A DNA stretch of 64,000 nt from contig QPMI01000029.1 in NCBI GenBank assembly GCA_004431415.1, positions 186,001-250,000 on the forward strand. Reading direction: 5' to 3'. Source of the DNA: Cyanophora paradoxa CCMP329. Taxonomy: Eukaryota; Plantae; Glaucophyta. The notes under the pieces are model-generated. The model searched no databases. It was not told where the DNA came from and saw only the letters and a program-made list of their open reading frames with translations. Of this stretch, positions 26,253-62,366 are shown one piece after another; the first letter of the stretch is position 1; every line of letters starts with the position of its first letter. Made by a program: the position numbers and the translations under genes.

Positions 26253-27329
26253 TTATGAAGAGCTGAGAAGCATACATCCGAAGAAAAATCTGACATTATA
26301 TTCTATATTACCAGCATCATTAGAAGCAATAGTTAAAGAGAGACCATCATTAGCTTCAAGGCTTACAATAATCTCAAACCCATTATGAGCATACACAGTT
26401 GATTTATTTAAAGTTGTAACCTCAACTCCAAATGAGCTTCCATTCTTCCGTAAGAAGGTAGTGATTATTCCATTTCTTCGAGTATCAGGAATAAAAAAGA
26501 ATCCACTGAATGAGACTAAATAGTTACCGGAAACAGGTGCGGTAAAAAGCCCTGTTGTGGTATTGAAATGATTTCCATTGTTGACTATCGCATAAAAGGA
26601 TTCGGTTAGAATGTAACGAAATGTTTCAGTTATTGACCCATTTGGTTGCTGTTTTGTTGCAAAGAAACGAGGATGGCTACTTAATTTGAGATATTTGCTT
26701 GTCGGAAGTGTGAGATGTTGAACAGTTGTGTTATCTGTCTGAATAGTTTTTTGAAGAGAAAGAATGGTATCCCCATTCCTCTTGTAATTCATGACTGTGT
26801 CACTCATGTTGTCAATCTCAGGTGTATTTATTCTTGTTGTAAGTGTGAGAGTTCCATACTGAATACTCCCTGAAAGCCCACCATTAAAGGTCATCAATCC
26901 TGCAAATGAACATGTCCCACTCACAGTCAATTGATTTGCTGTCAGAGTTCCTGCTACATTTGCTCCATCACCAATGTAGGCTCCTCCACTCTTGACTACA
27001 AGAGCGGAAGTATTGCTTGTATTACCAAAAGTAACTATCTGTGCTGTGGTGACTCCACCCACATTATCATATATTGCTGAATTCGGGACTACCTGACCTG
27101 CTTGAACTTGGTTTTTATTCGAGATTATAATGCCTGTGGTTCTAATCTTGCCTCCATTTCGATCACATCGAATTTCTTTCGCTCTGAGTATATTGTCCTG
27201 TGTGAAAGAAGTATTGCTTGATGTTTCAGTGCATATATTCCCGGGTGTAGAGTCGACTACTTCATGAGAAGTGCTATGAAGTGATTTGGCTGCAAGTTCA
27301 TAGTTTGGGATTTCTAAAAGGGAGGTCAT
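26253..27329 (-). CDS. Fibre-like protein 4 with C-terminal C1q-like domain
   Basis: Shared N module, plus NNGNHFNTTTGLFTAPVSGNYLVSF...LEANDGL...FFGCML. Likely start MTSLLEIP at 27329. Confidence 0.75.
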   Translation of the reverse strand: MTSLLEIPNYELAAKSLHSTSHEVVDSTPGNICTETSSNTSFTQDNILRAKEIRCDRNGGKIRTTGIIISNKNQVQAGQVVPNSAIYDNVGGVTTAQIVTFGNTSNTSALVVKSGGAYIGDGANVAGTLTANQLTVSGTCSFAGLMTFNGGLSGSIQYGTLTLTTRINTPEIDNMSDTVMNYKRNGDTILSLQKTIQTDNTTVQHLTLPTSKYLKLSSHPRFFATKQQPNGSITETFRYILTESFYAIVNNGNHFNTTTGLFTAPVSGNYLVSFSGFFFIPDTRRNGIITTFLRKNGSSFGVEVTTLNKSTVYAHNGFEIIVSLEANDGLSLTIASNDAGNIEYNVRFFFGCMLLSSS

Positions 27330-27348
27330 CTTTATAATTACGAAATAG

Positions 27349-30300: not shown

Positions 30301-30566
30301 TGTCTTCTTGTTGCTTTAATTTCGGCAACTTCATTTTTTTTAACATTACCCAAACTGAAAGCAATGCTAACATCTTCTTTATCGGGATCCGTTTGATTCA
30401 GTGATAAAGCATGAATTCTGGAATGCGTCTTACTGGGTTTATCGGCGCTCTGATCGATAGAAGCCGATCCTTTGATGGTGATATTATCGAAATTCACATG
30501 TTTAGGGTTTGTTTTACCACCACTTCCTGATATTGTTTGTAAATTTGCTGGATAATTGAAACTCAT
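27349..30566 (-). CDS. Large fibre protein (about 1070 aa) with HxH repeats and a C-terminal H-type-lectin-like domain; 1 frameshift near 27700
   Basis: HTHTKAEITDF repeats, HEHEWEDILNKP, YLPLTGG, FSGNYNDLTNRP. An alternate frame from about 27700 reads ...TINFNSSFANPPIVTT...TIHYIAVAI* and stops at 27349. Confidence 0.75.
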
Positions 30567-30615
30567 CCCTGGTTACTCTACATATAGAGATTTATTAAAT
30601 TCCGATAAAGTAAAG

Positions 30616-32172
30616 ATGCCTCAGAAATTCGTTTTAGCGTTGTCGGGCGGCGGTGCGCGTGGTATTATCATAACAAGGTTACTAACAGAAATTGAAAATA
30701 GAACTCGAAGACGTATAATAAATCTTGTCGATCTTGTAAGCGGAACATCCACAGGTGGTATAATTGCGATTGGGTTAAATATCAGACATCCTGAGATGCC
30801 CAATGAACCAAAACTAACAGCTAACGATTTGCATAATATTTATCTTACACAGTTACCGTTAATTTTTGCGAATCCGCGAAATATCATTGAAAATGCCCTT
30901 TTCAATACAAAATACGATGCTACACCACTGGAAAGTGCGATTTATTCAGTAACTGGTGAATCACTCATAAGAGATTCTCTAAAAGACATTGTGATTACAT
31001 CTTTTGATACTCAATATATGAAACCAATATTTATCACAAACGATAACAAATACAATTTTTTGCCGAATAAAATAGTAGCGCGTGCTACATCTGCTGCTCC
31101 AACATACTTTTCACCTGTTAGCATTGTAGATTTCAATAATGGCGTAATTGCTTCTCTGATTGATGGCGCAATTTCAGGAAACAATAACCCAAGTGTATGC
31201 GGTTATAGTCATGCAAAAAAGATTTATAATGAAGATGATGAAATTATAGTTATAAGTATATCTTGTGGTGAGGTTGATGCAAATTTAGAATCTGAATATT
31301 TCGGATATGCTTATGAGACTGTGAATAGCTGGGGTATTCTTTCATGGATTGCTTCAACAGAAGGAAGCCCATTAATTAATATGCTAATGGCTGCAAGCGA
31401 ACTATCCGCTCTTGATAAAATGGAAGAATTACTACCTCCAAATCTTGACCAAGGATATAATAGATATTTCCGTCTTTCTGTTCCGCTTCCAAATGATATA
31501 GTTCGATCACTTGATGATACATCTAAGATACCTGAAATGCTCGCATTCACTGAAACGTATATTGCTGCAAATGACGCTATGATAAATAGACTCTGTGATT
31601 TACTTGTAACAAATTATGAGATTAATAACCCTGTCAGATCGTATATATCTTCCACTCTTAATAACATACCTCCCATTGACGCTAATTGGTATCTTCTGTC
31701 AGATAATGCGTTTACCGCTTCGTCTGCGAAATTTGGAAAGGAGGCATTTAAAGCCCGCCCATCATTAACTGGATGGGAAGCGAATGCATCCGCAATTAAC
31801 GGAGTATGGGAAACGCCAACAGAATATCTGCAAATAGCATTCCCATATACATATGAGATCGCTTCGATAATTGCTTATGGTTCAGGTATAACGGCTGCGT
31901 TTATTAAGACTTTCAATGTTGCGACGTCGCAAGATGGGGTTTCATGGTCATATATCAAGTATGAAGGTGTGAATAGAATGTTTGTATGTGAGAATATAAA
32001 TAATGCTAATAACTCTGGGGATGTATCATATAACGGGGGCTTTCCGCTTGCAATAAACGATGTTTTCTATATAGGTTTCCCACTGAGAACAAGATATATA
32101 CGAATATATCCGCTGGTATATATAAATGCTCCGACTATGAGAGTCGATGTGACGGGCGCATTTATACGGTAG
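30616..32172 (+). CDS. Patatin-like phospholipase fused to a discoidin (F5/8 type C) domain
   Basis: SGGGARG, GTSTG, ATSAAPTYF, DGA motifs. C-terminal EYLQIAF...SQDGVSW...TRYIRIYP...MRVDV. Likely start MPQKF. Confidence 0.88.
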   Translation: MPQKFVLALSGGGARGIIITRLLTEIENRTRRRIINLVDLVSGTSTGGIIAIGLNIRHPEMPNEPKLTANDLHNIYLTQLPLIFANPRNIIENALFNTKYDATPLESAIYSVTGESLIRDSLKDIVITSFDTQYMKPIFITNDNKYNFLPNKIVARATSAAPTYFSPVSIVDFNNGVIASLIDGAISGNNNPSVCGYSHAKKIYNEDDEIIVISISCGEVDANLESEYFGYAYETVNSWGILSWIASTEGSPLINMLMAASELSALDKMEELLPPNLDQGYNRYFRLSVPLPNDIVRSLDDTSKIPEMLAFTETYIAANDAMINRLCDLLVTNYEINNPVRSYISSTLNNIPPIDANWYLLSDNAFTASSAKFGKEAFKARPSLTGWEANASAINGVWETPTEYLQIAFPYTYEIASIIAYGSGITAAFIKTFNVATSQDGVSWSYIKYEGVNRMFVCENINNANNSGDVSYNGGFPLAINDVFYIGFPLRTRYIRIYPLVYINAPTMRVDVTGAFIR

Positions 32173-32385: not shown

Positions 32386-32642
32386 GCTGATCGAATCAGT
32401 TCGATTGCTGATCCAATCAGCTCGATTGCTGATCCAATCAGTTCGATTGCTGATCGAATCAGCTCGATTGGTGATCCAATCAGCTCGATTGCTGATCGAA
32501 TCAGTTCGATTGCTGATCCAATCAGCTCGATTGCTGATCCAATCAGCTCGATTGCTGATCCAATCAGTTCGATTGCTGATCGAATCAGCTGATCCAATCA
32601 GCTCGATTGCTGATCGAATCAGCTCGATTGCTGATCCATTGC
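32386..32642. repeat. 21-bp tandem array TGATC(C/G)AATCAG(C/T)TCGATTGC, about 12 copies
   Basis: Directly visible between the convergent patatin and integrase genes, preceded by three CACGTGTTC. Confidence 0.92.
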
Positions 32643-32824: not shown

Positions 32825-34225
32825 TTACTTTCGCGAACCGGATCTTAGATTTACCCGGGTTTGAGGTGCTGAATATGTCTCTTTTGAGGTCTGGAAGTCT
32901 GTATACCATCTCTGGCTGTTGACTTCTGATAGTTTCTGGGTTCCTGCTATGGTTAACTTCTTTAATTCGCGTTCCGCCTTCCCTTTCTTCTTGGTTCTGG
33001 CTTGTGTTAACGGTTCTTCTGGGACGTCATCCGCTTTTTCGATGCCTTCCTTGCGAATCGCCGAATCGACCCGGGCTTCTTCTTTCGCTTGTTCCAGTGC
33101 ATCCACTGTGGGCGCTTCGTGGTATTCAACACCTTTGATAGGTAACAGTTCGTGGAAAGCGAATCTCCCTTCGACCATTTCGCCGTTCGGGTTTCGCAAC
33201 CGAAACTTGAAACCCTCCCGACCTTCAACAGTATAGACAATTCGCGACCAATTGACACCTTGTTTAGCGAATGGGTTCTTTTCTATTCTCACTCTCACAA
33301 ACATTCCCTGTTTCACACCATCCAAGTAAGCGATCGACTTCTTGAACCTCTCATCTTCTAAACCTATAATCTCTCTATAATGATCTTCCGTGGTCTCTGC
33401 TGGTTTTCTCTTAGTTGCTGAGTGGATGGTATTGTTATAGTTATACTCTATGTCTCCCAATACATCGAAGAATCGCGCTGTGTTGTTTGCTATGCAATAG
33501 TTCGTGATCAATCGTTTGATCTGCTTGTTAAACGCTTCGATTCTACCTTGGCTTCGATGATCTGCGACATCGCTAATCTGGTGGTCTATGAACTTCTTAG
33601 CAAGGTAATTTGTGAACATCGTATTAGTGAATTCGCTTCCGCTGTCACTCTGAACGCGAGCGATAGGTCGTGGAACTCTTCGTTGTAACTGTTCAAACGC
33701 CGCAAGTGCCGTAAGAGCGCTCTTATCTCTCATCGGAATGATGTAACCGGTGCGTAAGGTCGATTCCATCGCGGACATGAACGTATCGTAACCGTCGTTT
33801 TGGTTCTTGTATGCAGGGAAAAAGAGAAGATCGATTACGTAAGTATCGAGAGGTTGCCGAATCGGAATCATCGGGTCTCTCTTTCTTGAAAGAGTCGGTG
33901 CGTTTATCTGAACGACTTCCTGTTTATCATACCATTCTCTCATCTTCTTGTAATCCTCCTCTGGTAGTTCCTTTCTCATTGCTCCGAATCCCTTGTAACC
34001 TGTGCGCGGATCGTAAAACTTCTTCGCGATCTTCGATTCTTTTGTTACAGTCTCAGTAGGCAATGCCTTCGGGATCAGTTGTTTAACCATCTCAGACTTC
34101 TTTAAGATTCGTGTGTTCTTCTCTTCGACCGGAATAGTGATTGGTAGCATGTTCCCTTGGTCTTCTTTCATGCTCTTCTTTACGATTTTAGGAACAGGTC
34201 GCAATCCTATCTGTGCTGAGGGCAT
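32825..34225 (-). CDS. Retroviral-like (rve, DDE) integrase
   Basis: IDLLF, QSDSGSEF, GRIEAFNK catalytic triad and YNNTIHSAT; intact, 466 aa. Confidence 0.93.
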   Translation of the reverse strand: MPSAQIGLRPVPKIVKKSMKEDQGNMLPITIPVEEKNTRILKKSEMVKQLIPKALPTETVTKESKIAKKFYDPRTGYKGFGAMRKELPEEDYKKMREWYDKQEVVQINAPTLSRKRDPMIPIRQPLDTYVIDLLFFPAYKNQNDGYDTFMSAMESTLRTGYIIPMRDKSALTALAAFEQLQRRVPRPIARVQSDSGSEFTNTMFTNYLAKKFIDHQISDVADHRSQGRIEAFNKQIKRLITNYCIANNTARFFDVLGDIEYNYNNTIHSATKRKPAETTEDHYREIIGLEDERFKKSIAYLDGVKQGMFVRVRIEKNPFAKQGVNWSRIVYTVEGREGFKFRLRNPNGEMVEGRFAFHELLPIKGVEYHEAPTVDALEQAKEEARVDSAIRKEGIEKADDVPEEPLTQARTKKKGKAERELKKLTIAGTQKLSEVNSQRWYTDFQTSKETYSAPQTRVNLRSGSRK

Positions 34226-34410: not shown

Positions 34411-37400
34411 TTAAAGACCAAATGGAATGCTGTGAATGCCGTCGGCTGATATCTTCCGTTTGCTATCGAGTTGGTTTAGAGCGACCCTTCTGCTCTCCAA
34501 GTCATATAAGTTGTGGTCTTGCCTTCGCTTGTTTGTTACTGATACTGTTTTTATGATGCCTTCAAACAGACATCTCTTAAAGTCGTCAAAATGAACCTCC
34601 TTCGAGGAAGTCCCCGACATCTTTACTCTTTCGTTGGTCTCAGTTCTGAAAGCATAGAGTTTCGATCTCAGACCCACATACTCCATGATCTTTGCATTTG
34701 GAAACTCATTCTTATATTTACCAGGAACCATGCGGTTTTTGATACTCACGAGAGGATGGGATTTATCGTAATTGCTCCTATCGAGATACTCACCTATCTC
34801 TTTCATATCTTCATTGAGATTATTTGTTTTCAAGAACAAACAGAACGAATCGGTATCGTGGAACAGTAGTTTGGCGGTTTCCCACTTCTTCCTTACCACA
34901 TCATAGAAGAATCGATAATTATGGAGTTTCGCGAAATCCAAAACGAAAGCGCCAATTGCTACGGGTTTATCTAAATTAACATGCTTCGAATACATCTCGA
35001 AGGCAACTGCGTTTTCGTTTAATACATTGGTCGCCTTGATAAGCGGACTTGCTGCGTATTTCTTACAGAGTTTCTCACTGTTAGCGATCTTGACAGTTGA
35101 GCGACCCCTGCAAGATTCCAAGCATTTACCATAAATCGCATTGTTCATTAGTTTAAAGAAGTCGCTTTCGAAATGGTTGGTAGATTCGTGCCTGAGTAGA
35201 GTATTCAGACCAATGTAAGATCTCATGAATGGGGAGGTAGCGAATGAGAGAACTTTATGTATCTTTTTTAGAATGACACCCTTTTTAACGATGTAGTTAA
35301 GAAGAGGTCGAGCAATCACGTATTTATTCTTGGGCGTAAATGTCGCCGTAAGTTTGGGGTCTTTGCTGATCTTTTCGCCCGTCAGATCTAATAGTTTATT
35401 TTGATAATCACCAAGCATCTCATTGGTTATCACTTCTTTATTCACAATCAGTGGGAAATCGTAATGATCTTCAAGAGTTGTGGGGTATTCAAGATCAACT
35501 TCAATAAATGCGCTTCGTCCCTCTACCTCTTTAAGTGCCTCTGTGATGTCTTCCCATCGATAATCTCCGATGGGTAGTGGTTGACTGAGAGCATAACCAT
35601 AAAGATTATTCGCATCCAACAATACTATATGATCGTCGGCATTCTCTACCTTTGCGTATCGTGTGGGCATGGTAGCAAATCCACCTCTAATGGCTCTCTC
35701 AACAAATTCGTATTTCTCTACATCATCGATTAGTTCAATCTTAACTTTCGTATGTTTGAGCATAGCGTCCCAAGAGAGACCCGGTGCGCTAACGTAATGT
35801 GCGGGATCCAATCCGTATTGAGAAAACGCCAATTTGCGGAATGCTTCAAACTTTCTCATTAAATCACCCACATCCACAGATTGGAAATCCATGAAATGGG
35901 AAGCATCAATGAACTTCCACATGCCCCATTGAAGCGACAGGTATTGATCGAAATTCTTGCTTAGAATCTCAACACGTAGTTTATCGTCTTGTTGGGCGAT
36001 TTTGCGGAATATTCCATGCCCGCATTCATCCATGTGATCGACCACGATAGCTACCTTTGTTTGTTTAGAGATTCGCCGGTGGAGGTTACAGTTTCGGCAT
36101 GCCTTTCCGATGAAATCGCCGGATTGGTGACAATGATCGCGAACCGGGAAGTTTTCGTGGGTGAATCTCTGAGAGCAAATATAACAGTGTTTTGTTATCT
36201 TGTATTCCGCCTTCTGATCGTCTGTGAGTGGATGCATCGGAATATTTCTAAACAGCGTTTCAACGATTTCGGGTCTGATATCTTGGAGAGTAGCAAAGAG
36301 AGAACCAAGTGGATCGGTTCCCTCGAAATGGTATGCTCTCACTTCGAGTCCCATTACCACTCTCAGTGAAACCGCTTTAATCTCACGTTTACTCCTCTGA
36401 GCATCGATAGCAACTGAATGATCTTCAACTTTAACATAACAGATCACAGGAAGCCACACGGTTTTACGTAGATGTTGCAGACCGAATTCAATTACGCTTC
36501 CCGCTTTCGGGCATTTGCCTTTGCTCTCCCTCCAATCAATGCAGCGATTCGCTTCAATATGCAGGTCTAATTTCTCCTGAGTTCTAAAACGAGACAGACA
36601 GGTTTCACAGTAATAAATGCGACCATCACATGCTTTATCAAACGTAGTTTTCAGAAGACGACTAAAAGACATGATAGTGATGTAGTGTCCCCGATCATCT
36701 TCGGTGTTTTCGATAAGTAAAAGGTTTATCTTGGTCTTTCTCCTTGGGTTACTTGATTGATGGAGAGGAAAGAAACACTCTTTGGCGTTATCGGCTCCGT
36801 AAATGTTAATAGATAGATCGGGGTTCAGTTCTTCGAATCGATCGATTACCTCAGCATCACATGCAACGGGAAACTGAATACCATCGAAATTGAGTTCATT
36901 TAACCATCGGCGGTATTGGTTCGGTTCGTTGCTCTTGTGTTTGTTAATGTCCTTTCGATGCAGGTAAGCCAAAATCGCATACTTGAAGCAATCTTGACCG
37001 TCGATATTCTTAACGTTCACCGTTGCCTTCTTGGATGCGATCCATTCGGGAGTTGCGAAAAAACAACCACCCACAGGTGCGTATGACATGATTACACCTC
37101 TTAAAATTTCGATCTTCTCTAAACGGTAACTATCCACTTGCGTCATCTCCTCTTGCATTTTCTGTAACGCTTTGCGAACTTCTGTGTCTATGTTGCGGGA
37201 TCGGGTAATTACGAAATAATCGCTGTAAATGAATTTGGTGATATAGATGCGCGGATTACCTACTTTGGTAAATTTGCAAACGAAAGTCAGACGGACTTTA
37301 ACGGCTCTCAGTTGATCTAAGCGGGTTCTAATGCGTTGCGGTAGACTTGGTGCGATTCTTTCGAGAAATTCGATAGCATCCACGACAACTTCGTTTCGGG

Positions 37401-37692
37401 CGCGATAGGTTAACCACGAATACGCTTGATTCATTGCTTGACCATCTTCAATATCCGGTTCAATTGCTCCTAATCTCTGTCCTTCATCCATAAACTCCTC
37501 CATTCTCTGCATGCGATCGTAGAGGTCATTTGCAATCTCAGTGAGTTGACCTAATCGCGGTCGTCTATCTAAGATGGCGGCTTCTCTATCATATTCCGCT
37601 TCGGTGATCTCACCTGTAACTAAGAGAGTTCCTAACAATCCAAGTATTTCATTTTTCTTTTCTTTGATCAGTCTGTTCGTTTGGCGGGGCAT
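34411..37692 (-). CDS. Protein-primed family B DNA polymerase (terminal protein region, vOTU-like domain, Zn finger, EndoVII-like insert)
   Basis: LLDANNLYG, KLMNNAIYGK, HDTDS, KLYAF; DCFKYAIL...GHY; CETC...H; VRDHCHQSG...CRNCN. Intact, 1093 aa. Confidence 0.95.
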   Translation of the reverse strand: MPRQTNRLIKEKKNEILGLLGTLLVTGEITEAEYDREAAILDRRPRLGQLTEIANDLYDRMQRMEEFMDEGQRLGAIEPDIEDGQAMNQAYSWLTYRARNEVVVDAIEFLERIAPSLPQRIRTRLDQLRAVKVRLTFVCKFTKVGNPRIYITKFIYSDYFVITRSRNIDTEVRKALQKMQEEMTQVDSYRLEKIEILRGVIMSYAPVGGCFFATPEWIASKKATVNVKNIDGQDCFKYAILAYLHRKDINKHKSNEPNQYRRWLNELNFDGIQFPVACDAEVIDRFEELNPDLSINIYGADNAKECFFPLHQSSNPRRKTKINLLLIENTEDDRGHYITIMSFSRLLKTTFDKACDGRIYYCETCLSRFRTQEKLDLHIEANRCIDWRESKGKCPKAGSVIEFGLQHLRKTVWLPVICYVKVEDHSVAIDAQRSKREIKAVSLRVVMGLEVRAYHFEGTDPLGSLFATLQDIRPEIVETLFRNIPMHPLTDDQKAEYKITKHCYICSQRFTHENFPVRDHCHQSGDFIGKACRNCNLHRRISKQTKVAIVVDHMDECGHGIFRKIAQQDDKLRVEILSKNFDQYLSLQWGMWKFIDASHFMDFQSVDVGDLMRKFEAFRKLAFSQYGLDPAHYVSAPGLSWDAMLKHTKVKIELIDDVEKYEFVERAIRGGFATMPTRYAKVENADDHIVLLDANNLYGYALSQPLPIGDYRWEDITEALKEVEGRSAFIEVDLEYPTTLEDHYDFPLIVNKEVITNEMLGDYQNKLLDLTGEKISKDPKLTATFTPKNKYVIARPLLNYIVKKGVILKKIHKVLSFATSPFMRSYIGLNTLLRHESTNHFESDFFKLMNNAIYGKCLESCRGRSTVKIANSEKLCKKYAASPLIKATNVLNENAVAFEMYSKHVNLDKPVAIGAFVLDFAKLHNYRFFYDVVRKKWETAKLLFHDTDSFCLFLKTNNLNEDMKEIGEYLDRSNYDKSHPLVSIKNRMVPGKYKNEFPNAKIMEYVGLRSKLYAFRTETNERVKMSGTSSKEVHFDDFKRCLFEGIIKTVSVTNKRRQDHNLYDLESRRVALNQLDSKRKISADGIHSIPFGL

Positions 37693-38022: not shown

Positions 38023-38066
38023 TGTGGTGCTCTTGGATCACATCTCTGAAATCGCGTCATTTTTTG

Positions 38067-38262
38067 TAGGCGCTTGTAGGCAGTTAGGCACTTCTTAATC
38101 GAGAATTAAAAAGAAGTCCCAAATACATCAACTTGTGTTTTTCAAAACGTTGATTTTATTTTTTATAGAGAGTTTCCAGGAAAGGTGCCTAAGTGCCTAA
38201 CGTCAATTAAAAGTGCCTAACCTCAATTGAAAAGTGCCTACTTCAATTATTCAAGTGCCTAC
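38067..38262. promoter_or_regulatory. Internal copy of the element A iteron block directly downstream of the helicase gene
   Basis: About 180 bp near-identical to 22028-22208, about 65 bp after the helicase stop at 38327. Confidence 0.65.
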
Positions 38263-38326: not shown

Positions 38327-40721
38327 TTACTCATCATCATCATCAAACTCAACAACAGTAGGTGTCTTATCAATCTTCTTCACACCCTTGTAGCCACGAT
38401 CATAACCAGTTCCAACCTTCTTGCGAACTGCATTCTTGTCATATTTCGCTCCAAGCAAACCCATCACAGTTTTAATGCGATTTGCAGACATATTCAGTCT
38501 CAGTTGCTTGATCTCTTGCTCAACCATCTTGGAAGTTACAGAGTCGGATGAATTTCGAGTGAATTCGAACACTGATCTGATCAGAGACATTTCATCACCT
38601 GCATCTTCCCGGAATTCATTAATATCCTCAGCAACCTTCCCAGACACCACGAATTTCTGAGATTTGTAGGCTTCAAACACCATCCATTCGAATGCTCTAA
38701 TTATCTCAGGACTTTTTAGCAGAACACTCTTGATATCTTCCGAAGCCAATCTCACACAAGGAGAGTTCATTTCCTCAACAGTCTTTTGATCAACGAATTT
38801 GTGGGGTGCTTGAACAATACCATGGTTTGAAGGGTATCAGATGGGGAAATGGGTGGAACATCATTCATGATCATCCACAAACGACTTTGGAGGCGAATAT
38901 TGACCTCATTTTCATAAAGAACACGCATGCATTGAACATCACCACCAGATTCCTTCTTTTTGATCATTGCACCATTCACCTTAATATTTGTGTTTGAGAC
39001 ATCGAATTTCATCTCTTGGGTGAATGTCAGACGACGAAATTCACAAGGTTTCATCCACTTTAACTTGGAGGTATCGTTGTCATCTGAGTTCTTATTCAGC
39101 AAGAATGCCTCCCCACTGATGGTGTGCACATATCCACTTCCCCAGGTATTTTCATTGAGATTCACATAAACCCCCTTACCACAATTGCGTTCACCAATTG
39201 ATAATCCCCACTGTTTATCTTCGTATTTCCCAGCCATTGCACGAGCTGTGAATTCCAGAGCAGAAGAAATCGAATCATTTCCGAAAACGGGTTCCAGAAT
39301 CTTGTCGAAAAGGGTTTGAATATCCGAATCAGATGGCTTGATCACATATCCATCTTTGTCAACATGAAGATCCCTCTCAATTCGAGTGGTAGAATAGATC
39401 TTGTCACATTTGTCCCATGGTGTGAGCTTCTTTGTCTCGAAATCATACACACCATTTCGGTAGCACAATTTCCCAATGGTCGATGACCACATAATATCAT
39501 TGTAGAACACACGATTATTGGGCAGAAATGCTTTGGCTGTCTTGATAATTCGATCTGCCCCAGTAAGATTGGTAGAATATGGCTTCAAGTTACCTTTGTC
39601 ATCTTCCTTGAACATGAAGCACTGCATGCACAATTTCAACATTATATTGTAGACCATTGTGGAATCATCAGTCCACAGAAAATCGTCTGTCTGAGCGAAT
39701 ATACGACCATCAGACATGACCACTCGCCCCTCAATCGATTTAACAAATGTGAGAGCAGCTTCACGATCATCCCGAACAATATTAAGAGGAGAGGATACAC
39801 TTTTTGAATTTGTTGGAATCGTAAATCCTTGATCCATTGGTTTAATCATCAACTCAATCTTGTAGCCAGTGACATTCTCAATATACTTGGTAGCATCACA
39901 GAGAATATCGTGGAGACGAGTTTCGGGTAATTCAGGGGCTTTTCAACCATGCAACCATCATAAACGAGAACGCCAACTTTTACAGCAAGTGAGGTTAAAT
40001 ACTGACAAAGCGCAATCAGACATTCATTCTCCAATTTGCAGAGAACCATATTAATGGTTGAACCAAAGATGTTATACTCCTTCTTTCGCTTGCAAATCAA
40101 GAAGAAGTTGTGGTTTTCGGGCATGCTTGCAATTTGAGCGTGAATTCCTGTGATTTCGTTCTTAACTGCTTTGAACTTGGGGTGGTTCAGCAGCTCCTTG
40201 TTATCAATTGAGCCCCCACCCCCGTTTACAACAGAAAGAAACGCTTTCTTGATATCTTCGCGAGAAAGTCCCGATTTCTTGCTTATATCAGCAATGATAC
40301 TATCACGATTGTCGACATAATCAGCGAGACCCTCACAAACGATTTCATTTTTTTCACAATACTGAATGAGAAGTGTGGGATGCGCATTTTTCATATCGAT
40401 ATCGTAGTAGAAATCGCGAGCAAGAGTGTGGCGGAATTCTCTGGGCATTCCTTGCATTGATGCTTGCTTCTTCTTGATGTGTTCAAGATTCACGAAATAA
40501 CGACCAGTATTATGTTTGCATTGATGATATTTAACTTCAATGCGCCCATCTCGCTTCAAATCCTTGAAATAACGTTGGAGAAGGGTGAGAGTAGCTGTTG
40601 CATCAATATCAGGTCGATACTCCAAAGTCTCGAAATTATCAATCAGGTATTTGAGAGTGGAGCGATCCACCTTCTCAAAGAGAGCGATTTTAAGTCCGTT
40701 CGGTTGCTGAGAGTTGAACAT
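38327..40721 (-). CDS. TVpol (PolA-related primase) fused to a D5-like SF3 helicase; split by two 1-nt frameshifts
   Basis: DIDMKNAHP and LVYDGCMV (TVpol); CYRNGVYDF, GERNCGKG, TFTQE, MNDVP (SF3). Adding one base at the G4 runs 39935-39938 and 38803-38806 joins three ORFs into about 800 aa. Confidence 0.85.
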
Positions 40722-42370: not shown

Positions 42371-43153
42371 TTACAATCCCCTCTTATATCGCATCAACTT
42401 ATTCGTGTGAACAGCGCTTTTAATCTCTTTTGGCGCTTCCTCCTTCTCAGGCGGTTTTAATTCATCTTCTTTCTTTTTTGGTTTGCGATGGAACCGAGGA
42501 AACTTAAAGTCTTTAACGAGTTCCGCTTTATCAACATAGTATTCCACCGAATAATTCGCAGAACTCCAAATGAGAAACTGATAGGAGTGAACGTATTCCT
42601 CAAACATCTTATAGAAAGCGTCTTTATCCCGCATGATATTGTATTCTTCTTCAATGGCTTCCAGTTCTTTGCGATTGGCGGCACTTAGGAACATTGCATA
42701 ATCTGAATTGACGCGAATGGTTGAAGAAACCTTACGCAGTTTCTGAGTTATGCAGAAAATTGTAATCGCCGAGTGGCGGCCGCGCGAATACAGAGATCCA
42801 ATAATTTTATCACGGGTAAGGTCTACAATCTCATTGTCTATAAGATCATCGAGAACAACACATAATTGATTAACGGGTTCTCCTTTCTCAATTTTCTCTT
42901 GTCTTTCATCGAGAAGTTTAGCGATGTAAGGCGCATCCCATTTACCGAGCTGTAATGTTGCGACATCATCCCAAAAATGATTGAATGATGTCCCACTTAT
43001 AACAAGAACAACATCTAACTTTTTCGCATCGTGAAGTTGTTTTAGCCAATACTTTACCGCTTCTGACTTGCCCGTCGCGCTTTTTCCGATTGCTAATACG
43101 CGAAAAGGGGGTTTAATCATCTCACCAGCATTAAATTCGGGAACGTCAGACAT
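42371..43153 (-). CDS. A32-like (FtsK/HerA) genome packaging ATPase
   Basis: GKSATGKS, VVLDDL, SRGRH...ITQ. Likely start MSDVPEF. Confidence 0.92.
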   Translation of the reverse strand: MSDVPEFNAGEMIKPPFRVLAIGKSATGKSEAVKYWLKQLHDAKKLDVVLVISGTSFNHFWDDVATLQLGKWDAPYIAKLLDERQEKIEKGEPVNQLCVVLDDLIDNEIVDLTRDKIIGSLYSRGRHSAITIFCITQKLRKVSSTIRVNSDYAMFLSAANRKELEAIEEEYNIMRDKDAFYKMFEEYVHSYQFLIWSSANYSVEYYVDKAELVKDFKFPRFHRKPKKKEDELKPPEKEEAPKEIKSAVHTNKLMRYKRGL

Positions 43154-43214
43154 GGCGTAGTAGATCTTTCTTAATAAAGATAGATAAAAATAACGAAATC
43201 TTACTGATAATGGT

Positions 43215-44612
43215 TTAGAGATTAATGCGGCGAATTCCGTCCTTATCGACAATAATGAACGAATGCATGAGAGCGCGAACGTTAACAGTAATTGTGCGAT
43301 CAGCAGGAAGATACAGAGTGAGGAACGATGACGACGAGTTCGTAAGGTCAACATATCCAGATTGGGCAATGTTGCGAATCGCCTTCTCACCATCAACACA
43401 GAATGGAAGACCGGTAAGGACGTAACGGTTTGCTTCCTTGTCCATATTCGAGCATTTGAAGGCATCGGCGATGAGTTCCGCACCTTTGAGTAGTGGGATT
43501 GGCTCCGTCGAATAAAGACGCTGTCCATTAATCTCACAGGTCATCGTGATATCCTTCGCATTCGCAAGCGTTTTAAGGACACTGTGAGAACCATTGGAAG
43601 TATCGACACCATCGGCATCGCGAACAGAGACAAGAAGAGCATAAACCAGACCAGAGATTTGGCTAAGATTGATTCGGTTGGGTTGAGTGTTACCTTTCGC
43701 AGCAACACCAATAGCATCGACGAAACCGATATCGAGAGCAGGAATAGCCATCCCTGTGGTCTTAACCTTCTCAATAACAGTTGCGAACAGTTCATCAGAA
43801 ACGTTGATAGCATGCATGTAGAGACGAGGAGACTTAATGGAGATGTAATGGGTCATTGGAGGAACAGTTCCAGCAACTTCGAACCCAGTAATACCGCCTG
43901 TGGTGATGTTTTGACCAACATTAGCAAGTGTAACATTGGTAGCGCTTCCCAGTCCATCATCGGTGGATTTATCGGCAGCATCAGTAACAACTGGAAGAGA
44001 GCGACCACCATAAGAAGTTTCAAGGTAACCCTTGTTAGTTTCCTTAAACCACACAGTGATAACGGCTTCGCCCGAGAGAGCGCCAAGTGGTAGGTAGTGG
44101 TTCAACCACGGCACCGGGATTTCAACGAAGAAAGCACCACCTTTACGGTTGGTTCCGTGAGCGGGAATACCATGAAGCATTCCCATTGAACGCTTCTTTT
44201 TCGCCAGTTGATCCTCGCTGTAATAAACCAGTGGGAAAATCGCAAGAAAATCGCTTGGGACGTGGTAGGTGTAAGAACCATACGAGAATTCAAGACGCTC
44301 TACAAGCGCACCTACGGGGCGGGTGTAACCATTGCGCACCAGGTCGGTATCGCCTTCGAAAGCGGTTAGTTCGGGAAGATCGAAAGCGAGTTCGATTTTA
44401 CCAACAAAGTTGTAGCGGGGAAGTTTGAAAGAAACGCGTTGACCTACATTGTTTTCATAGGTTGTCGATGGACTAACAGTTACGAGAACGGGTTTCGTCT
44501 TCGATTCCAGACCAAGCATAAGCGAGTTATCGAGGAAGAACGCTTTGGCTTCCTCGGGCGTTGTTAGCGCCTCTTTCAGAGAAAGACGTTGAAGGGTCGA
44601 GGTAACATCCAT
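43215..44612 (-). CDS. Double-jelly-roll major capsid protein
   Basis: 465 aa, beta-rich. N-terminal pattern VSFKLPR..FVGKIELAFDLP...LVERLEFSYG is typical of DJR MCPs. Lies between the ATPase and the penton genes. Confidence 0.8.
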   Translation of the reverse strand: MDVTSTLQRLSLKEALTTPEEAKAFFLDNSLMLGLESKTKPVLVTVSPSTTYENNVGQRVSFKLPRYNFVGKIELAFDLPELTAFEGDTDLVRNGYTRPVGALVERLEFSYGSYTYHVPSDFLAIFPLVYYSEDQLAKKKRSMGMLHGIPAHGTNRKGGAFFVEIPVPWLNHYLPLGALSGEAVITVWFKETNKGYLETSYGGRSLPVVTDAADKSTDDGLGSATNVTLANVGQNITTGGITGFEVAGTVPPMTHYISIKSPRLYMHAINVSDELFATVIEKVKTTGMAIPALDIGFVDAIGVAAKGNTQPNRINLSQISGLVYALLVSVRDADGVDTSNGSHSVLKTLANAKDITMTCEINGQRLYSTEPIPLLKGAELIADAFKCSNMDKEANRYVLTGLPFCVDGEKAIRNIAQSGYVDLTNSSSSFLTLYLPADRTITVNVRALMHSFIIVDKDGIRRINL

Positions 44613-47302: not shown

Positions 47303-48789
47303 AAAGTAAGACCTCAGTAATATCACAATTGATAGATGAGAGAATAACAGAGATCTTTTCAGGGTTGGAGAAAGCGGAGAAGCAGATAGCAGCGCGATTT
47401 CCGAGTTAATCACACTGTTAATGGTTTGGTAGGCACTTTATATTTCTCAGATAATGAAAGTGAATATATCATATCTCTATTTCTCTCACTGAATATCGTT
47501 TGGTAGGCACTTTTTAATTGAAGTTAGGCACTTTTTAATTGAAGTTAGGCACTTTCAATTGACGTTAGGCACTTAGGCACCTTTTCTGGAAACTCTCTAT
47601 AAAAATAAAATCAACGTTTTGAAAAACACAAGTTGATGTATTTGGGACTTCTTTTTAATTCTCGATTAGGAAGTGCCTAACGCGCCTACGCCGCCTACCG
47701 CGATTAAAAAAGTGCCTACTTCGATTAACCCGCTCCATTTCAGTAGCCCGTTTTATATCTAAATGATATCCGCCGATCACGATAAAAAAGTGCCTAACCG
47801 TTTTCATCTCAGCGAAATCTCATCGATTGTTTAATTGGACATAATGCTGTAACCATCTCTTCCAACAAAATTACATCGATTAATTCAATTGAGATTGATA
47901 CACCTAAGATACAATGTTTTTACAGTAAAAAACAGAATCCAATCTTATCAATTGTTTAATTGGACATAATGCAACTCTGGGGTCAATTTTGATACAGTAA
48001 AAATCTTACCCGAATCTCATCGATTGTTTAATTGGACATAATGCAGTAACCATCTCTTCCAACAAAATACGCCGCAATCTCAACGATTGTTTAATTGGAC
48101 ATAATGCAGTAACGAGTGAATTATTTTCATCCGATATCTCATCGATTGTTTAATTGGACATAATGCAGTAACGAGTGAATTATTTTCATCCGATATTTCA
48201 TCGATTGTTTAATTGGACATAATGCAGTAACGAGTGAATTATTTTCATCCGATATCTCATCGATTGTTTAATTGGACATAATGCAGTAACCATCTAATCC
48301 AACAAAATACGCCGCAATCTCATCGATTGTTTAATTGGACATAATGCAGTAACGAGTGAATTATTTTCATCCGATATTTCATCGATTGTTTAATTGGACA
48401 TAATGCAACTCTGTGTGAATTTTTGCGATTTCCGATAGAATGGGCGGTGGACTACTTCAATCGTGATTATATCAATCGTGATTATATCATAAATTTATGT
48501 TCCTTCAATCGAGATTATATCAAATTTGCATAAAATACATATTAATCGCGTTTATATCAATAAATTAATCGATATTATATCAATTGTTTAATCGAGATTA
48601 TTGAAATTTAATATAAAAATGCATATTTATCGATTAATTTATACATATTTATTAACATAAAAATACATATTTATCGATTAAATATACAAATTTATTTAAG
48701 AAAAACACATAAAGAAATACAAATTTAAATCCAGGAGCGAAGCGCGAAGCGCGTAGCGGAGGGATTTAAATTTGTATTTCTTTATGTGT
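47303..48789. repeat. Right TIR of element A (complete, about 1.49 kb)
   Basis: Reverse complement of the left TIR plus an AT-rich distal 380 bp, ending at ...TATGTGT before host GCCGGG. Confidence 0.93.
48705..48789. other. Terminal hairpin: perfect 28-bp stem with a 29-nt loop containing three GCGNAGC
   Basis: ACACATAAAGAAATACAAATTTAAATCC (48705-48732), loop AGGA-GCGAAGC-GCGAAGC-GCGTAGC-GGAG, then the reverse complement at 48762-48789. Confidence 0.93.
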
Positions 48790-50850
48790 GCCGGGCTGCA
48801 CGGGCGCCGCCACGGGCCCGAGGGCGCATCCCAGCGAACACGCTGCTCAACTGTCCGTGCGAGCTTTCTTCGCCCCGCCCCTCCCCCCCTCCCCCCTAGC
48901 TTGCTTCGTCCGCCGTTTTTTGGAGCGGATCCAACGCTGCCGTTTTTTCGCCCCCCCCCCCCCCCCCCCTCTGCCGTTTTTTGGAGCGGAACCAACGCTG
49001 ACGCTGGCCGTGCAGCACGCATCCGCCGGCAAAGAGCTCTACTGTGCGTCGCCCCGGCCCTCCACTGAATGAAATGACTGACTGAATTCGACTGGCGGTG
49101 CAGTGGGTTAGACGTTGCTCTAGCTGCAGCAACGGCGGCCGGGGAGGCTGATCGCGGTGCCGTCCCTGCCCGCCCACCCGAGCATGCGCAGCGGCTTCTG
49201 ACGGTGCCGCGCCTCTTGGGCCAGGAAGCTGGCGGAAGCCCGGAGCCAGTGACCATCGCTGTTCCAGCCTGGCTAGCGGATCACACGTACGCCCGTACCC
49301 CTTCCGCGGCATCAATATATAACCCCTCCCCGCTCATTCTCTCCGCACTACAGGCAGGAAGCAGCGAAGCAGAGAGCAGCGCGCGCCCGAGTTCTTCAGC
49401 AGCGACGTCGACCGGCCGAGAGGAAGTCAATTTGATCCGTCATATAGGGGCAGGAAAGCATGTAGAAAGCGTTTCAGGAAGCATTTTTAGATCAGTGTAG
49501 ATGCGCTATAATGTCTGAGCAGCGTTTGGTAGTCGGCAACCCGAGAAATTCGGTCTGCCAGCTGCCATACAAACCCAACCACAGGTGGTTGGGAATGTAT
49601 GGCAGTTGGCAAGCGAGGGGTACGGGGAAATCCGTGCAAATCGGGCGAGAATTGTGTTAATTTACGACAAAATTAAAACATAAAATAGACCGAATTACCT
49701 AATTTTGGGGGGGAGAAACACGAAAATTGCGCTATTTTATCGAAATTTCGGCTCCCACCCCCCGATCAAAATCCCACCGTGTGGCACCAAATTAAAATAT
49801 TGAGCACGAAATTGGCCACTTCCTAGCGCGAGCTCTAGGTCGCCGGGCCGGCGCTCCTCGCCCAGGGCGCGTACAGACTCCGCGCATGTTCCAACGCCTT
49901 CATAGACATATATATAAGATAGAGCACCCCTGTGAAACTTCAGAATCCGGGTTCTCAATAGTAGGCGGCCTTAGCGCGAAATTGCCTAGGGGCGGCATCG
50001 AACCCGGGTTGTTCCATTCCAACAGAATTCTTGAAGTTCGGGTACCTTAGCGGGACTTAACAATAGGTAGCTAGCGACTCCGTGACGGGCCGGAGGTTCC
50101 TAGCGATCTTAGCTGGGTTTATGAGAAGGCTCTATTTCTACATGCATCATTGAAGTTGTCCTTCTAACCCAGGGCATGCGCAGAGCCGGCTCTGCCTTCG
50201 CGTACGCGTGCGCCCTCGGGCGCGTCGCCGTGACGCGACGACGGTAATGGTGGCCACTCCGCCCCGGACGCCCCGTGCGCCACGCCGCGCTCGCGCCATC
50301 CCTTCCCCCGCGCCGGGCCCCGCGGCGCTCCTCTGAGGCGGCGGGACAGGCCGCGGGCGGCTGTGGTGAGCGGGCGGCTGTGGTGAGCAGGCAGGCCCTC
50401 GCGGCCTCCGCCCAGCAGCTCATCGCCGCCTCCGCCTCGGGCGTCGGCGTGTGCGCGCCGGCCCCCGCCCCGGCCTCCCGCCCCCCGGCGCTTGCTGAGA
50501 AACAAGCCGCAGGCCGGCGGGGCGCGGGGCGCTGCGGCTCATGGAGGTGGCGGCGCTCGTCCTCGCCGCCGCCTCAAGGCCGGCAACGAGCGCCTGTGCG
50601 CCGGCCGCCCCGCCCCGCCCCGCCCCGCCCCGCCGCCTCGCCCTGAGGGGCGCGGGGTGCCCAGCAGCCTGACGATGGCGGCGGACAAGTACGCGAGGCT
50701 CTTCGCGCACGCCGACGCCCCGCGGCCCTCGCCCTGCAGCTCCTCCACCGCCACCGCGTCGACTCCCCGCTCCTCGCCGCCCCACCGCCCACCCCGCCCG
50801 CTTCTCCCTCGTCGCCCTCCTCGGCCTGCCCGCCCCGCCGCTCGTCCCTT
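48790..50850 (+). repeat. Host 2.67-kb tandem array resumed right of element A
   Basis: Starts at the position equivalent to 20543; next unit marker at 50136. Confidence 0.93.
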
Positions 50851-57945: not shown

Positions 57946-58475
57946 CGCCGAAGGGCGCAACGATGCATCAGAGGACCATCGCGGCAGGACTTCATGAAGG
58001 ACCAGGGCGCAGAACGAACTGGGCATTTGCTCGAGCACGATGGATGTGCCCGAAGCCTCGCCAGGCCGCGCGGAGGCGGCCCGCCGCTGATTCTGGTGAC
58101 CTGTAACGCGTGCATTCGCTGAGCATGCGGACCACGATGAGGGGAAGACGACGGGAAGACGCCAACGCACCTTGCAATGCTGCACGGAATGGAATGTGAC
58201 CGCGAAACCAGTGTTGACCTGCTATATACGTGGTTCATAATGCAACGTTTCAGCTTTCGACTTTCGAGCATGAAAGGCGAGGGGAAAAAGTGGTTTTCGA
58301 GGGGAAAACGTAAGGAGGTCGGGTGAACAGTTCCGCTTCGAATTTAAATTTAAATCATTGAGTCTTGTTGAAATCATTGAATTGCATTCCACTCCTAGAG
58401 ATCTCCTCTCCTCTAGATCTCCTCTCGCTGCACGCGCGCGCATGCGCAGCTTCAGCTGCAGGCGCCCCCGCGAAT

Positions 58476-60167
58476 ATGGTGCGCCGTCTATCTGCATCAC
58501 CGATGCGGACCGCTGATGCCTGCATGCGAAAATCCGATTTTCGCAGCCGGAGACACGATCGAGGGCCAAGCGCCGCGGCTTCAGTGGCCCCAACGCCGCG
58601 GCGTCAGTGGCCCCAACGCCGAAGCGGAAATGCGGGCGTCGAGGCAAAGCAGAAGGTGCGCGTCGATCGCCTCGAGCTTCTGCAATCGCAGATATCGATA
58701 TCGATCGCGAGCGCTTTTTTGCAGCGAGTTCGCTCTCGCTGGAAACGCTGCCGGACGACGTTCTCTGGCAAGTGCTCGAGCACCTCGGAGCAGCGGACGC
58801 CTTCGACTCGCTGGCGGGCGCGCGCGAGCCGCCGCCTGCGGGACCTCGTCCGTGGCCACGGCACTTGGAGCTCGCTTTCGCTGCCGTGGCCCTACTTCCG
58901 CAAGCACCTCGGGCAATTGCGGCACGAGGAGGAAAAGAAGTGGCCGATCGTCAGCCCGCGGCGAATTCTGGAGGCCTGGGCGGCGCGGGTGGAGAAGGGC
59001 CTCGTGAAGGTGCGCTCGAGCTCGCACGTGCGTCGGACGCGAAAAGCTTCGGCGTTCCATGGCCATGACTTCACTGCAGGCGCGGTCCTTTCAGGTGGAC
59101 ACGACGATCGATGGGGAAGACGTGGACCCGGACCTCTACGGAGACGACTTATACATTGACATTGAGGAGAAGTACGGGACGGATCTGGACGTGATGTGCG
59201 ACGTCGACTCGCCACACCCGAACAAGTACAACAATTACGGCAGCTCCGAGTTCTGGGGCCGGGCTGTCCCCTTCCTCCGCTTCCTTCGCCACATGGGCCC
59301 CGAGCTGCAGAGCATCTCCATCACCCACGGCGGCGTGCGCCCATTGATTACGACTGTCTGCGCGAATTTTTGAATCGATCGCGATTTCGCTTAAGCCTGT
59401 TTCGTGAATCAGATCTCGCCTCCGTACGGTCTCTCTCCGGTCCTGAATGCCAGCTGGGGGCCCGACTACGACTACAGGATGCTCTGGGAGGCGGAGGAAA
59501 AGGCAAGCTGCGAGCTCCTTAAAATTAGGCCTTTTCTTGACCGAAAACGGTACCGGTGCAGGCTCTGATGGGCAGGCTAGCGCTGTACGTGGCCGCGCTC
59601 CTGGCGCAGCTCGCGCCTCTCGGCTCCACCCTTCAGAGCTTCTCGATCCGCCTCTGCGGGGAGCCGCCTCGCGCCGGTGCGGATGCGCATGCGATACCGT
59701 AGAAGTTCTCGAGACCTTTCGCTGTTTTCCCTGGCTGAGCTGGGCCGGGGGCGCGACGCATGCAGTCAAAAGCTATCCATTCGAGGGAGTTCGTGTGCTT
59801 TGTTCGCGAAATTGCGCACTCGAGCTCGTTGTCACATTTCGCGCAGTCTAGTCCTGCAGGGGTCACTGGCGCGAGCTGAAGCCGGCCCTCGCCCCTTTCT
59901 CCGCCCTCCGCCGCCTCCACATCTACGCCGTACACCTCCTCGAAGCCGAGGAGCTGCGCACCGTCGGCGCCGCGCTGCCGGCCCTCCGCGAGCTCGGCAC
60001 CTGGTGCAAAGGGGACGAGAAGAGGGGCGCAGTCGACCCCGCGGCGCGCCTCTCCCCCCTTCAGGAGCTCATCCCGAGCCTTGAAGCGGTGCCTTGAGCT
60101 TTTCGAATTACGGACTAGATTATCATCTCCCATCAGCGAGATCAAAGAATACGGGGACATATACTAG
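58476..60167 (+). CDS. F-box protein with LRR-like C-terminus (intron-containing; boundaries approximate)
   Basis: LETLPDDVLWQVLEHL...ASRRLRDLV F-box motif; LRR-like ELQSISIT and LPALREL. Confidence 0.65.
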
Positions 60168-61543
60168 ACTCGCGCCCAGTGATATCGATACGCCCCGGCC
60201 CCTTTAGTTTTACAGACTGTGACCCCGTCGACGTCGTGTCGCGATCATGAGCCGCTGCACGGCCTCCAATTGCCCAAATTACAATTGCAAGCTGCCTCGT
60301 GCATTCGCCCCCTGTGGCGAGCCGCCCTAGGCCTTTCGCCGCGCTTTGCGGCCTCCCTAGCTATATATAGGCCTCGGCCTGCCCCTTCTCCGGATCCCTC
60401 CTCCCGTTTCCCCCATTAATCACAGCAAGGTCGTTAATTCCTTGCTCCCCCTCTCTCCGCATATGATTGCGGGGCGGGCGGCCGCGGGGGCGGGTGGGGA
60501 GGGCGGGGCGGGGTAATGTATGGCGGGGGCGGGCGGGCGGGCGGGGGGCGGGGCCCGAGGCCGGCGGCCGGCGGCCGCGGCCCCCGACCTAATTGCGATC
60601 TAACTGAGTCGTCGACCTAATTGCAATTAGATCGCAATCAGGTCCTTGCAATTGGATCGCAATTAGGTCCTTATGCCCATTTTATTGTCGGAATTTAGTC
60701 GGGGCGATCCAATATATTAAGTCTCAGTTAGGTCGTAATTAGATCAGTTGACGTTCGGACCCCTTTTTACTAGTGATCATGAGAAGGAGCCGTCGGGGCG
60801 GGGGAGCAGCGCCGAGACGGTTTCCGCGTCCTGCTTCGAATTCTATGTCAAATTTTGTCAAATTTGTCAAATGCGCCCAGCAGCAGGCGTAGAACAATTA
60901 GAACCTTTCCTTGGCCCGCAGACCCTGCGGCCAGCTTTCAGAGGAGTCCGCTCTTTCTCTCTTTTATTTTCTTTCCACGGACCGCTGCCTTTCTTTCACT
61001 TTCTTAGCAAACGTCTCATACCTTTTTTCGGGCCTGGCCCCTAGCCCGGTGCACCAGATTGTTTAGCACAGTCGGCTGCTAGCGGGGCTGCGCCCCTCCC
61101 TTGAACAACTACAGCTAGTTCTCTTGTATGGGCCCAGCCCCACTGCTTTCACGAAGGCTTTTTTGAGATTTTTGCCTTCGGCCCTGCAACTTAGACTAGA
61201 GATTAGATAGGCCTAAGCCTGGATGTGGGGGGGGGGGGGGGGGGGGGGGGGAGGGGCGGGGGAGGGGGGGCGGCGGGGCTAGGAAGAGGGTGCCCGCATA
61301 GGTAAGGACGCGCCCGCTCAGGACCCTCGGCGGCGACGGGAGCGGGAGGAGGTAAAAACAAATTTAAATCACAGGCATTCACGTTCAGCTACAGACTGCA
61401 AGCGCATGCGCAGCTGCACTGTCTCCTGCACAGTGCCTGCACTGCGGCAGCTACAAATTTCCTACAATTACTACTAGTATATATATAGGCTACTTGGCAT
61501 AGTAGGCTGCACATATCGTTGCAGGATTACTACGTATACCGTA

Positions 61544-61955
61544 CGTGTAACACTTAAGTAATTAATGCGGGCACTTTAGTATTTTTTTTGAGAGACTACG
61601 GAAGGGCAAACCCCCCGTATAGGTACTACGGTAGTAAAATTAAAAATCGACAAAGCAATCACAAATCAAAGATAGTCGTAGGCAATCGCGATCGCAAGAC
61701 GTATATACGCATAAGAACTAGGGATCACGACGAGGGACAATGCGGTCCCAAATTAATGCGTTTTTCGCTGTCAAAACGCATTAATTTGGGACCGCATTAA
61801 TATCGAAACGCTAAGAAAGTGCTGTATGTACCCCTTACAGCAGCCAAAAGGCTTAAGCTTCAAAACGCATTAATTCGGTGCCACATTATTATCAATACCA
61901 GGGGTCCGGGTCCAAAAACGCATTTATTACTGGCGCATTAATTAAGTGTTACACG
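61544..61955. mobile_element. MITE-like element (copy 2 of 13241-13648)
   Basis: Same TIRs and internal palindrome. Confidence 0.6.
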
Positions 61956-62103
61956 GTAGTATACTAGTAGCCTAGTAGCTAGTATTGGTAGTATGGTACT
62001 AGCGCAGAAAACAAAATCCGACCGTCGGACCGATGATATCGATCGTGTCTTTTGGCACTTCCGGGATCACGGCGGGATCGGATATCGAATCATATTAACG
62101 ATA

Positions 62104-62366
62104 CCGTAATACACAATATATTATGTCATGCAAATTTATGTCGTTTTAAAACCCGAGCCTTCTCTATGCGAAATATGACGTCCCCAAATTATGTCGGCGT
62201 GCAATTTTCAGGCTTGTATGGGGCGGTAAAATTGGGGGGTACTATATGGGGCGGCTTAGCGAGCCCAAATTATGACGTCTCCAAATTATGTCGTTTTGTC
62301 AAGTTTTAGGCGACATAATTTCGGGACGACATAATAAAGTACAGACCTTAATATTCTGCATTACGG
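62104..62366. mobile_element. Tc1/mariner-type MITE
   Basis: TA-CCGTAATACACAATAT ... ATATTCTGCATTACGG-TA. A truncated left part is also at about 13795-13852. Confidence 0.65.

Follow-up and report, generated by a model that had tools for sequence, protein, structure and literature searches.

A perfect 28-bp terminal stem at the end of an integrated polinton-like element and its possible role as a fold-back telomere

The question of how integrated polinton-like viruses (PLVs) start replication, and how they rebuild their ends once excised, is posed in concrete form by a 27.5-kb AT-rich element (element A, 21280–48789) embedded in GC-rich host DNA within the 64-kb stretch analysed here (the window). 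Element A carries the polinton-like hallmarks of a protein-primed family B polymerase (pPolB), an rve integrase, an A32 ATPase and long TIRs, is best classed as an endogenous polinton-like virus integrated in a eukaryote genome, and ends at its right side in an inverted repeat enclosing three GCGNAGC units. A second element, B, is a decayed relative of A that occupies 1–10039, its other end lying beyond the window. We have used the two ends to ask what the terminal repeat might do.

Boundaries and terminal inverted repeats of element A

The features at the ends of element A are as follows.

21280–22407: left TIR of A, truncated, with no counterpart of 48408–48789 including the hairpin
47303–48789: right TIR of A
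48440–48704: subterminal AT-rich region with many ATCG/CGAT words (about 42 per kb versus 14 per kb in coding DNA)
48705–48732, plus strand: inner arm, an exact inverted copy of the terminal 28 bp of A, beginning at the terminal base
48733–48761, plus strand: purine-rich 29-nt loop (4-nt linker, three GCGNAGC units, 4-nt linker)
48737, 48744 and 48751 (starts), plus strand: GCGNAGC units in the loop
48762–48789, plus strand: outer arm, the 3' end of the element A plus strand; the host repeat restarts at 48790

The stem-loop closes on the last base of A, as the right junction is exact (48789/48790) by comparison with the further copies of a host unit of 2.68 kb that is repeated in tandem. The DNA from 48790 onwards matches the host unit at 20543 and at 15177, where the preceding bases differ from the last bases of A, and 48705–48789 is therefore the true element end. 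The TIRs are closely matched (47303–48407 against 22407–21301, 99.7% over 1107 nt) and the left end is cut within 59-bp TIR repeats. The same 738 bp of host unit flank A on both sides (20543–21280 and 48790–49526), and the left end was probably lost through deletion between tandem host units.

The TIRs also contain a 59/63-bp repeat array (21280–21900 and 47800–48424) with many variants in contigs from public sequencing runs. One TIR block (47503–47698) has an internal copy (92%) at 38066–38262, directly downstream of the helicase gene, and there is a parallel in element B, where a block at 46–132 matches subterminal DNA at 9443–9526; these internal copies of subterminal blocks may reflect module exchange or a reused promoter.

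The terminal stem-loop

The segments 48705–48732 and 48762–48789 form a perfect 28-bp inverted repeat that allows no outward extension, and the 29-nt loop reads AGGA-GCGAAGC-GCGAAGC-GCGTAGC-GGAG with GCGC-GAA-GCGC centred on its symmetry axis. The original prediction of a perfect stem on the last 85 nt with a (GCGNAGC)x3 loop was thus reproduced at 48705–48789, and the GC island that it described in AT-rich DNA is evident from the GC content of the loop (0.69) against those of the stem (0.21) and of 48425–48704 (0.22). When the 85-nt end is shuffled with dinucleotides preserved, none of 200 sequences folds as well (z -12), and when the right TIR (1487 nt) is shuffled 200 times, perfect inverted repeats reach 14 bp at most. 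Of the five GCGNAGC sites across the 27.5-kb element, three fall in the loop, and three units are found in none of 200,000 loop shuffles; because the units are tandem copies, a fairer null is that for one unit (about 1–4%), and the triplet taken alone is suggestive rather than overwhelming against chance.

The 3' end of the plus strand is the terminus of A, and folding pairs its last base with 48705. ViennaRNA gives a rod at -32.1, an open loop at -24.3 and three mini-hairpins at -22.7 kcal/mol, the rod having a central GCGC-GAA-GCGC hairpin with purine-purine mismatches beneath. It cannot rank the rod against the three-finger fold because its parameters give GNA loops no extra stability (+1.2 for GCGAAGC and for its complement alike), and a published study reports that current parameters fail to explain GNA mini-hairpins (PMC13037366). 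In the same source, GNA is reported as the only kind among 64 triloops to form the mini-hairpin (Tm 76 C for GAA and 70 C for GTA), and these structures are said to withstand 3' exonuclease and to be found at some primase and polymerase start sites. The GCGNAGC units of A lie on the strand with the terminal 3' end, and from the triloop results (PMC13037366) it follows that no orientation other than that of A would give a working cap. With GCGC-GAA-GCGC at the centre of the rod, the same rule gives either fold at least one GNA cap, and on the plus strand only.

A homologous stem at the end of element B

Element B ends next to a host repeat that begins at 10040 (10040–13852 matches 58210–62162 at 96%), and its last 272 nt have the same general organization.

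9768–9795, plus strand: inner arm of the homologous stem
9796–10012, plus strand: 217-nt AT-rich spacer without GCGNAGC, with AG at both edges as in the loop of A
10013–10039, plus strand: outer arm and terminus, 27 nt, one base fewer than the inner arm

The polymerases and integrases of A and B share about 30–70% amino-acid identity by segment. The two stems are identical at 18 of 28 positions (chance about 4e-4), and nine of the ten differences are altered on both arms, the tenth being the one-base gap in B; compensatory changes, proposed at the outset as a check on a second copy, are thus present. In both elements the inverted duplication begins at the terminal base, as judged by empty-site comparison, and the AG...AG edges of the loop lie on the 3'-terminal strand in both of the two ends. 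Enrichment of ATCG/CGAT words likewise extends around the end of B. From these alignments (two ends, one window) the terminal stem appears to be conserved with its arms evolving together, and the mini-hairpin triplet appears not to be. Where the original prediction had expected other copies to keep both the stem and the GNA units, the single other end, B, keeps the former and lacks GCGNAGC, and the triplet is most readily understood as a cap particular to one lineage, stabilising or protein-binding, rather than the core of the system. Neither A nor B has a recognisable separate element end preceding its inner arm, and no solo copy of the stem was found in the 64-kb window.

Several other features of element B and its surroundings were observed. 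B is heavily frameshifted, and its D5-like helicase gene is opposite in direction to the polymerase gene, unlike the arrangement in A. An imperfect palindrome (20-bp perfect core, 38-nt gap) lies at 8926–9029 between the integrase gene and the end, and the 3.8-kb host repeat flanking B contains, at 13433–13492 and again at 61739–61798, a perfect stem of 26 bp closed by an 8-nt loop.

A perfect terminal repeat could also be produced by a fold-back of the assembly or of a read, and the window does show homopolymer indels and frameshifts of the long-read type. We compared the window with contigs from four of 22 listed public runs, which hold diverged copies and may share the source of the window. 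The bin over the loop of A has contig depth in all four runs, and depth over this hairpin bin is high in three of them, as summed contig depth and not copy number; an X17 contig matches from 48705 over 37 nt or more, and one X1 contig aligns from 48790 and continues unlike the element. None of the 14 joints listed in the public-run contigs is a strand change. The depth over the loop and the X17 contig count against an artefact to the extent that the runs are independent of the window's source, and the homologous stem with matched arm changes in B and the clean host junction do so as well. An artefactual origin of the stem in A is largely refuted, and we regard it as very improbable.

The polymerase and other genes of element A

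The genes of A that bear on replication, integration and virion formation are all leftwards-transcribed.

32825–34225, minus strand: rve-type integrase (Pfam rve, E 3.8e-4, below the curated cutoff; PHROG transposase, E 7.5e-12)
34411–37692, minus strand: pPolB with predicted terminal protein (TP) and vOTU domains and an endonuclease VII-like insert
38327–40721, minus strand: three abutting ORFs, the middle one a D5-like primase/helicase
42371–43528, minus strand: A32-type packaging ATPase (Pfam Pox_A32, E 2.3e-8)
43215–44612, minus strand: likely double jelly-roll major capsid protein (Atlas feature score)

Comparison of the polymerase with ten homologues shows that motifs A, B and C are kept and that the exonuclease motifs are lost, as are about 98 residues of their domain. 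The vOTU-like residues Cys235 and His336 are retained in the same comparison, and the protein appears to retain both its terminal-protein and its vOTU domains. The TP linking loop is 4–5 residues shorter than in relatives, with VDSY replacing a GSGW-type motif and a nearby Gly gone. A structural model built on an alignment of 11 sequences (mean pLDDT 72) has a phi29-like fold (E 2.6e-17), and within it Ser188 and Tyr189 fall between a helix (165–184) followed by a loop and the last strand (189–203), with moderate local pLDDT. TP linking residues are reported to sit between a helix and a strand, with a nearby Gly or Pro noted (10.1101/2024.03.18.585575); on the model Ser188 or Tyr189 is a candidate linking residue, the Gly/Pro of that report being missing here. 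Protein priming by this polymerase is predicted and likely from the model, its competence being less than certain given the shortened TP loop.

Residues 497–537 of the polymerase form an endonuclease VII-like stretch (PHROG, E 1e-4); an endonuclease VII insert (PF02945) is found on many rows among its relatives, and its closest sequences are polinton pPolBs that bear one. The closest homologue, P0002 (47%), shares the exonuclease deletion and the shortened TP loop, and on sequence comparison the two seem to define an exonuclease-less clade among the endonuclease VII-bearing pPolBs.

The integrase residues D132, D194 and E230 are invariant in all four aligned sequences. The capsid candidate has no Pfam or PHROG match, and its assignment derives from an Atlas score of 0.98 to clusters in which 12–30% of members carry Capsid_N/Capsid_NCLDV (recognition 1778, which is low); its sole homologue is the EukProt protein P0001 (57%). 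No capsid maturation protease, a mark of classical Polinton/Maverick elements or virophages, was detected among 19 ORFs with Pfam or ten ORFs with PHROGs, and a divergent one could escape such searches. Pfam likewise detected no Rep/HUH nickase or telomere resolvase family among the 19 ORFs. The proposal that a displaced strand folds into a structured, parvovirus-like end is thus sustained in its structural part, given the stem with matched changes in B and the GNA units on the 3'-terminal strand in A, and weakened in its likeness to parvoviruses by the lack of a detected Rep/HUH.

The three ORFs at 38327–40721 are joined through overlapping stop and start codons and are possibly one split polymerase/primase-helicase gene. 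The first carries what we take, by eye, to be PolA-like motifs. The ORF at 39849–40721 has no match in Pfam or the PDB; its Atlas matches are unnamed clusters, with PolA at 0.82 only, and its single-sequence model (pLDDT 41) is too poor for use.

Comparison with known terminal structures

Palindromes at TIR extremities have been described in Halocafeteria seosinensis virophages (subtypes 1, 2, 5 and 6) as well as PLV subtype 4, with hairpin priming proposed, by a preprint (bioRxiv 10.64898/2026.07.28.741278) whose screen was limited to 10-nt gaps and whose palindromes occur mostly with non-pPolB replication genes. A and B resemble these in having a palindrome of at least 20 bp at the extreme TIR or element end of an integrated Polisuviricotina element. 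They differ in their gaps of 29 nt (A) and 217 nt (B), which exceed the limit of that screen and would be missed by it. Both encode a pPolB together with a D5-like helicase. The terms GNA, mini-hairpin, loop, flip and Streptomyces do not occur in the main text of the preprint, the supplements of which may hold similar loops; relative to that main text, the matched arm changes between divergent elements, the long spacers and the GNA cap appear to be new. In the literature searched, which included PMC11296320 and PMC12220804 and few subscription papers, we found terminal stems with a GNA cap or a long spacer reported for none of these viruses.

Streptomyces telomeres offer a closer parallel. Their terminal palindrome is reported to pair with an internal one around hairpins that sheared G:A pairs close, and truncated ends to be repaired by fold-back extension (PMC4513846, PMC5449611). 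As in the archetypal Tpg/Tap telomere with its end patching, the 3'-terminal sequence of A can pair with an internal complement, TP priming and fold-back repair being proposed here; the pattern of a terminal stem around G:A-closed hairpins on the 3' strand has a sequence match in A and is absent from the loop of B. The Streptomyces system is bacterial, with a 13-nt terminal palindrome, an internal origin and separate Tpg and Tap proteins, whereas A has a 28-bp stem and a fused TP-vOTU-pPolB, and we use it as a working analogue with no claim of homology.

The terminal hairpins of parvoviruses (PMC3087758) would share with A a folded 3' end able to self-prime and a branched GC-rich loop, although parvoviruses have an ssDNA genome and a Rep/NS1 nickase, and A is a TIR-flanked dsDNA-type element with an integrase, a pPolB and no detected Rep. 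In its replication genes A is like the Mavirus-type set of an exonuclease-less pPolB, a separate SF3 helicase and an rve integrase (10.1101/2024.03.18.585575), having lost its exonuclease motifs and encoding an adjoining D5-like helicase and an rve integrase. Unlike Mavirus, it has a likely capsid protein similar to PLV/NCLDV-type clusters and no detected maturation protease, and its polymerase is nearest to endonuclease VII-bearing polinton pPolBs. A possible likeness of the ACACAT end to the end of a yeast linear plasmid had no occurrence in the literature searched and is set aside.

Possible roles of the terminal stem

We tentatively propose, at a little under an even chance, that the terminal 85 nt of A act as a Streptomyces-like fold-back telomere, that is, as a local, protected and self-templating origin for protein-primed replication. 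Strand displacement would free a strand whose 3' end could pair with the inner arm, rebuilding a short and protected duplex of 28 bp with the sequence of the normal genome end; copying would be restarted by the predicted terminal-protein polymerase from this duplex, which would stand in for the 27-kb panhandle as the origin on displaced strands. Eroded ends could be re-templated on the folded duplex, and copying from the inner arm would keep both arms identical. We infer each of these functional steps: folding in vivo, TP priming, use of the local duplex as an origin and arm upkeep by copying.

The fold-back telomere is favoured because the arms of A and B have changed together in elements with such divergent polymerases and integrases, and because in each the terminal base is where the duplication begins. 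It is further favoured by the phi29-like polymerase model with S188/Y189 at the linking site and C235/H336 kept, by the lack of a Rep/HUH or telomere resolvase family among the 19 ORFs, by the orientation of the GNA cap and the AG...AG edges on the 3'-terminal strand (two of two), and by the Streptomyces telomeres, which share this topology and undergo repair by fold-back extension (PMC4513846, PMC5449611). Against it, there are two ends only, from one window, and B has no GNA units; the shortened TP loop without its Gly leaves priming competence uncertain; any polymerase could extend a 3' end that is flush and paired and has template ahead of it, and nothing was seen to prevent this. PMC5449611 notes that no such repair is reported for replicons with TP-primed whole-genome replication (adenovirus, phi29), and none of 38 distant loci, few of which hold true ends, has a comparable terminal stem. 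A stronger form of the proposal, in which a eukaryotic PLV lineage independently evolved a Streptomyces-style telomere whose TP-primed, GNA-capped 28-bp 3' fold is both local origin and self-repair template, perhaps offsetting the lost proofreading domain, seems to us doubtful, at about one chance in four.

That the folded end might itself be extended leads to the main rival, parvovirus-like self-priming with hairpin transfer as proposed for the Halocafeteria elements, which we consider rather unlikely although a serious contender. The folded 3' end would be extended as a primer, a nick at 48704/48705, for which the polymerase's endonuclease VII-like insert may be responsible, would reopen the end, and the outer arm would always be copied from the inner. 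Such obligatory copying accounts best for perfect and concerted arms, and in the fold the 3' end is paired throughout, with template lying further on; the TP loop of the polymerase is atypical, and the D5-like helicase genes of A and B fit the link between palindromes and non-pPolB genes reported in the preprint (10.64898/2026.07.28.741278). A nickase is needed, however, and the stretch at 497–537 that might supply one belongs to an insert common in relatives, and so is not specific to hairpin ends. Simple hairpin transfer would also invert the loop, with loss of the GNA cap at half of the ends, and the single orientation seen in two of two ends argues weakly against this, as does the lack of strand changes among the 14 listed joints, which is not a proper test. 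Self-priming is placed as a rival and not as the lead reading because no Rep/HUH was found and the polymerase appears to keep its TP domain.

The stem may instead serve integration or excision and not replication, either as an extra integrase site or as an extrudable cruciform marking a dsDNA end. It adjoins the host junction in A and in B, the pPolB-integrase module is common to both, and the preprint (10.64898/2026.07.28.741278) ties palindromes to particular RVE integrases; nevertheless, we find this improbable, since it leaves the strand-specific GNA cap unexplained and the 217-nt spacer of B would presumably be unfavourable for cruciform extrusion. We give slightly less credence still to a functionless by-product of template switching, or a MITE-like miniature end-to-end derivative at the terminus. 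The 272-nt stem-spacer-stem of B, filled with subterminal ATCG-rich DNA, does resemble an internally deleted mini-element, and neither the length nor the sequence of the loop is conserved, but two divergent elements share an identical 28-bp stem length, a start at the terminal base and AG edges, and the window contains neither a solo copy nor an element end before the inner arm.

The fold-back telomere and hairpin transfer make different predictions. A count of loop orientations across genomic copies would separate them computationally, and the end of A, short enough at 85 nt to be synthesized and accompanied by its own polymerase gene, would allow protein priming and self-priming to be distinguished in vitro. 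A and B extend terminal palindromes beyond the single host reported so far to elements with a pPolB. On the stronger form of the telomere proposal, spaced terminal stems may be common and have gone unnoticed, since published screens admit short gaps only.

Relatives and accessory genes

Searches of IMG/VR viral contigs with the GNA triplet pattern and with a degenerate A/B stem pattern gave no matches, and no close relatives were found by protein for the major capsid protein (IMG/VR and JGI metagenomes) or for the pPolB pair (IMG/VR). All 38 distant loci (31 + 2 + 5; 23–39% protein identity) were scanned and none has tandem GCGNAGC or a comparable terminal stem, most of them being without true termini. 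Some, such as L016 and L035, have internal inverted repeats that are not at recognisable ends.

Accessory genes lie in the region 22301–32172 of element A. Their products are an AdoMet decarboxylase, two fibre-like proteins with C1q domains, a protein with phage-tail repeats and a fusion of a patatin with an F5/8 domain. The patatin and integrase genes converge, and the DNA between them (32386–32640) holds a 21-bp unit in about 12 copies, with a short self-complementary core in each.
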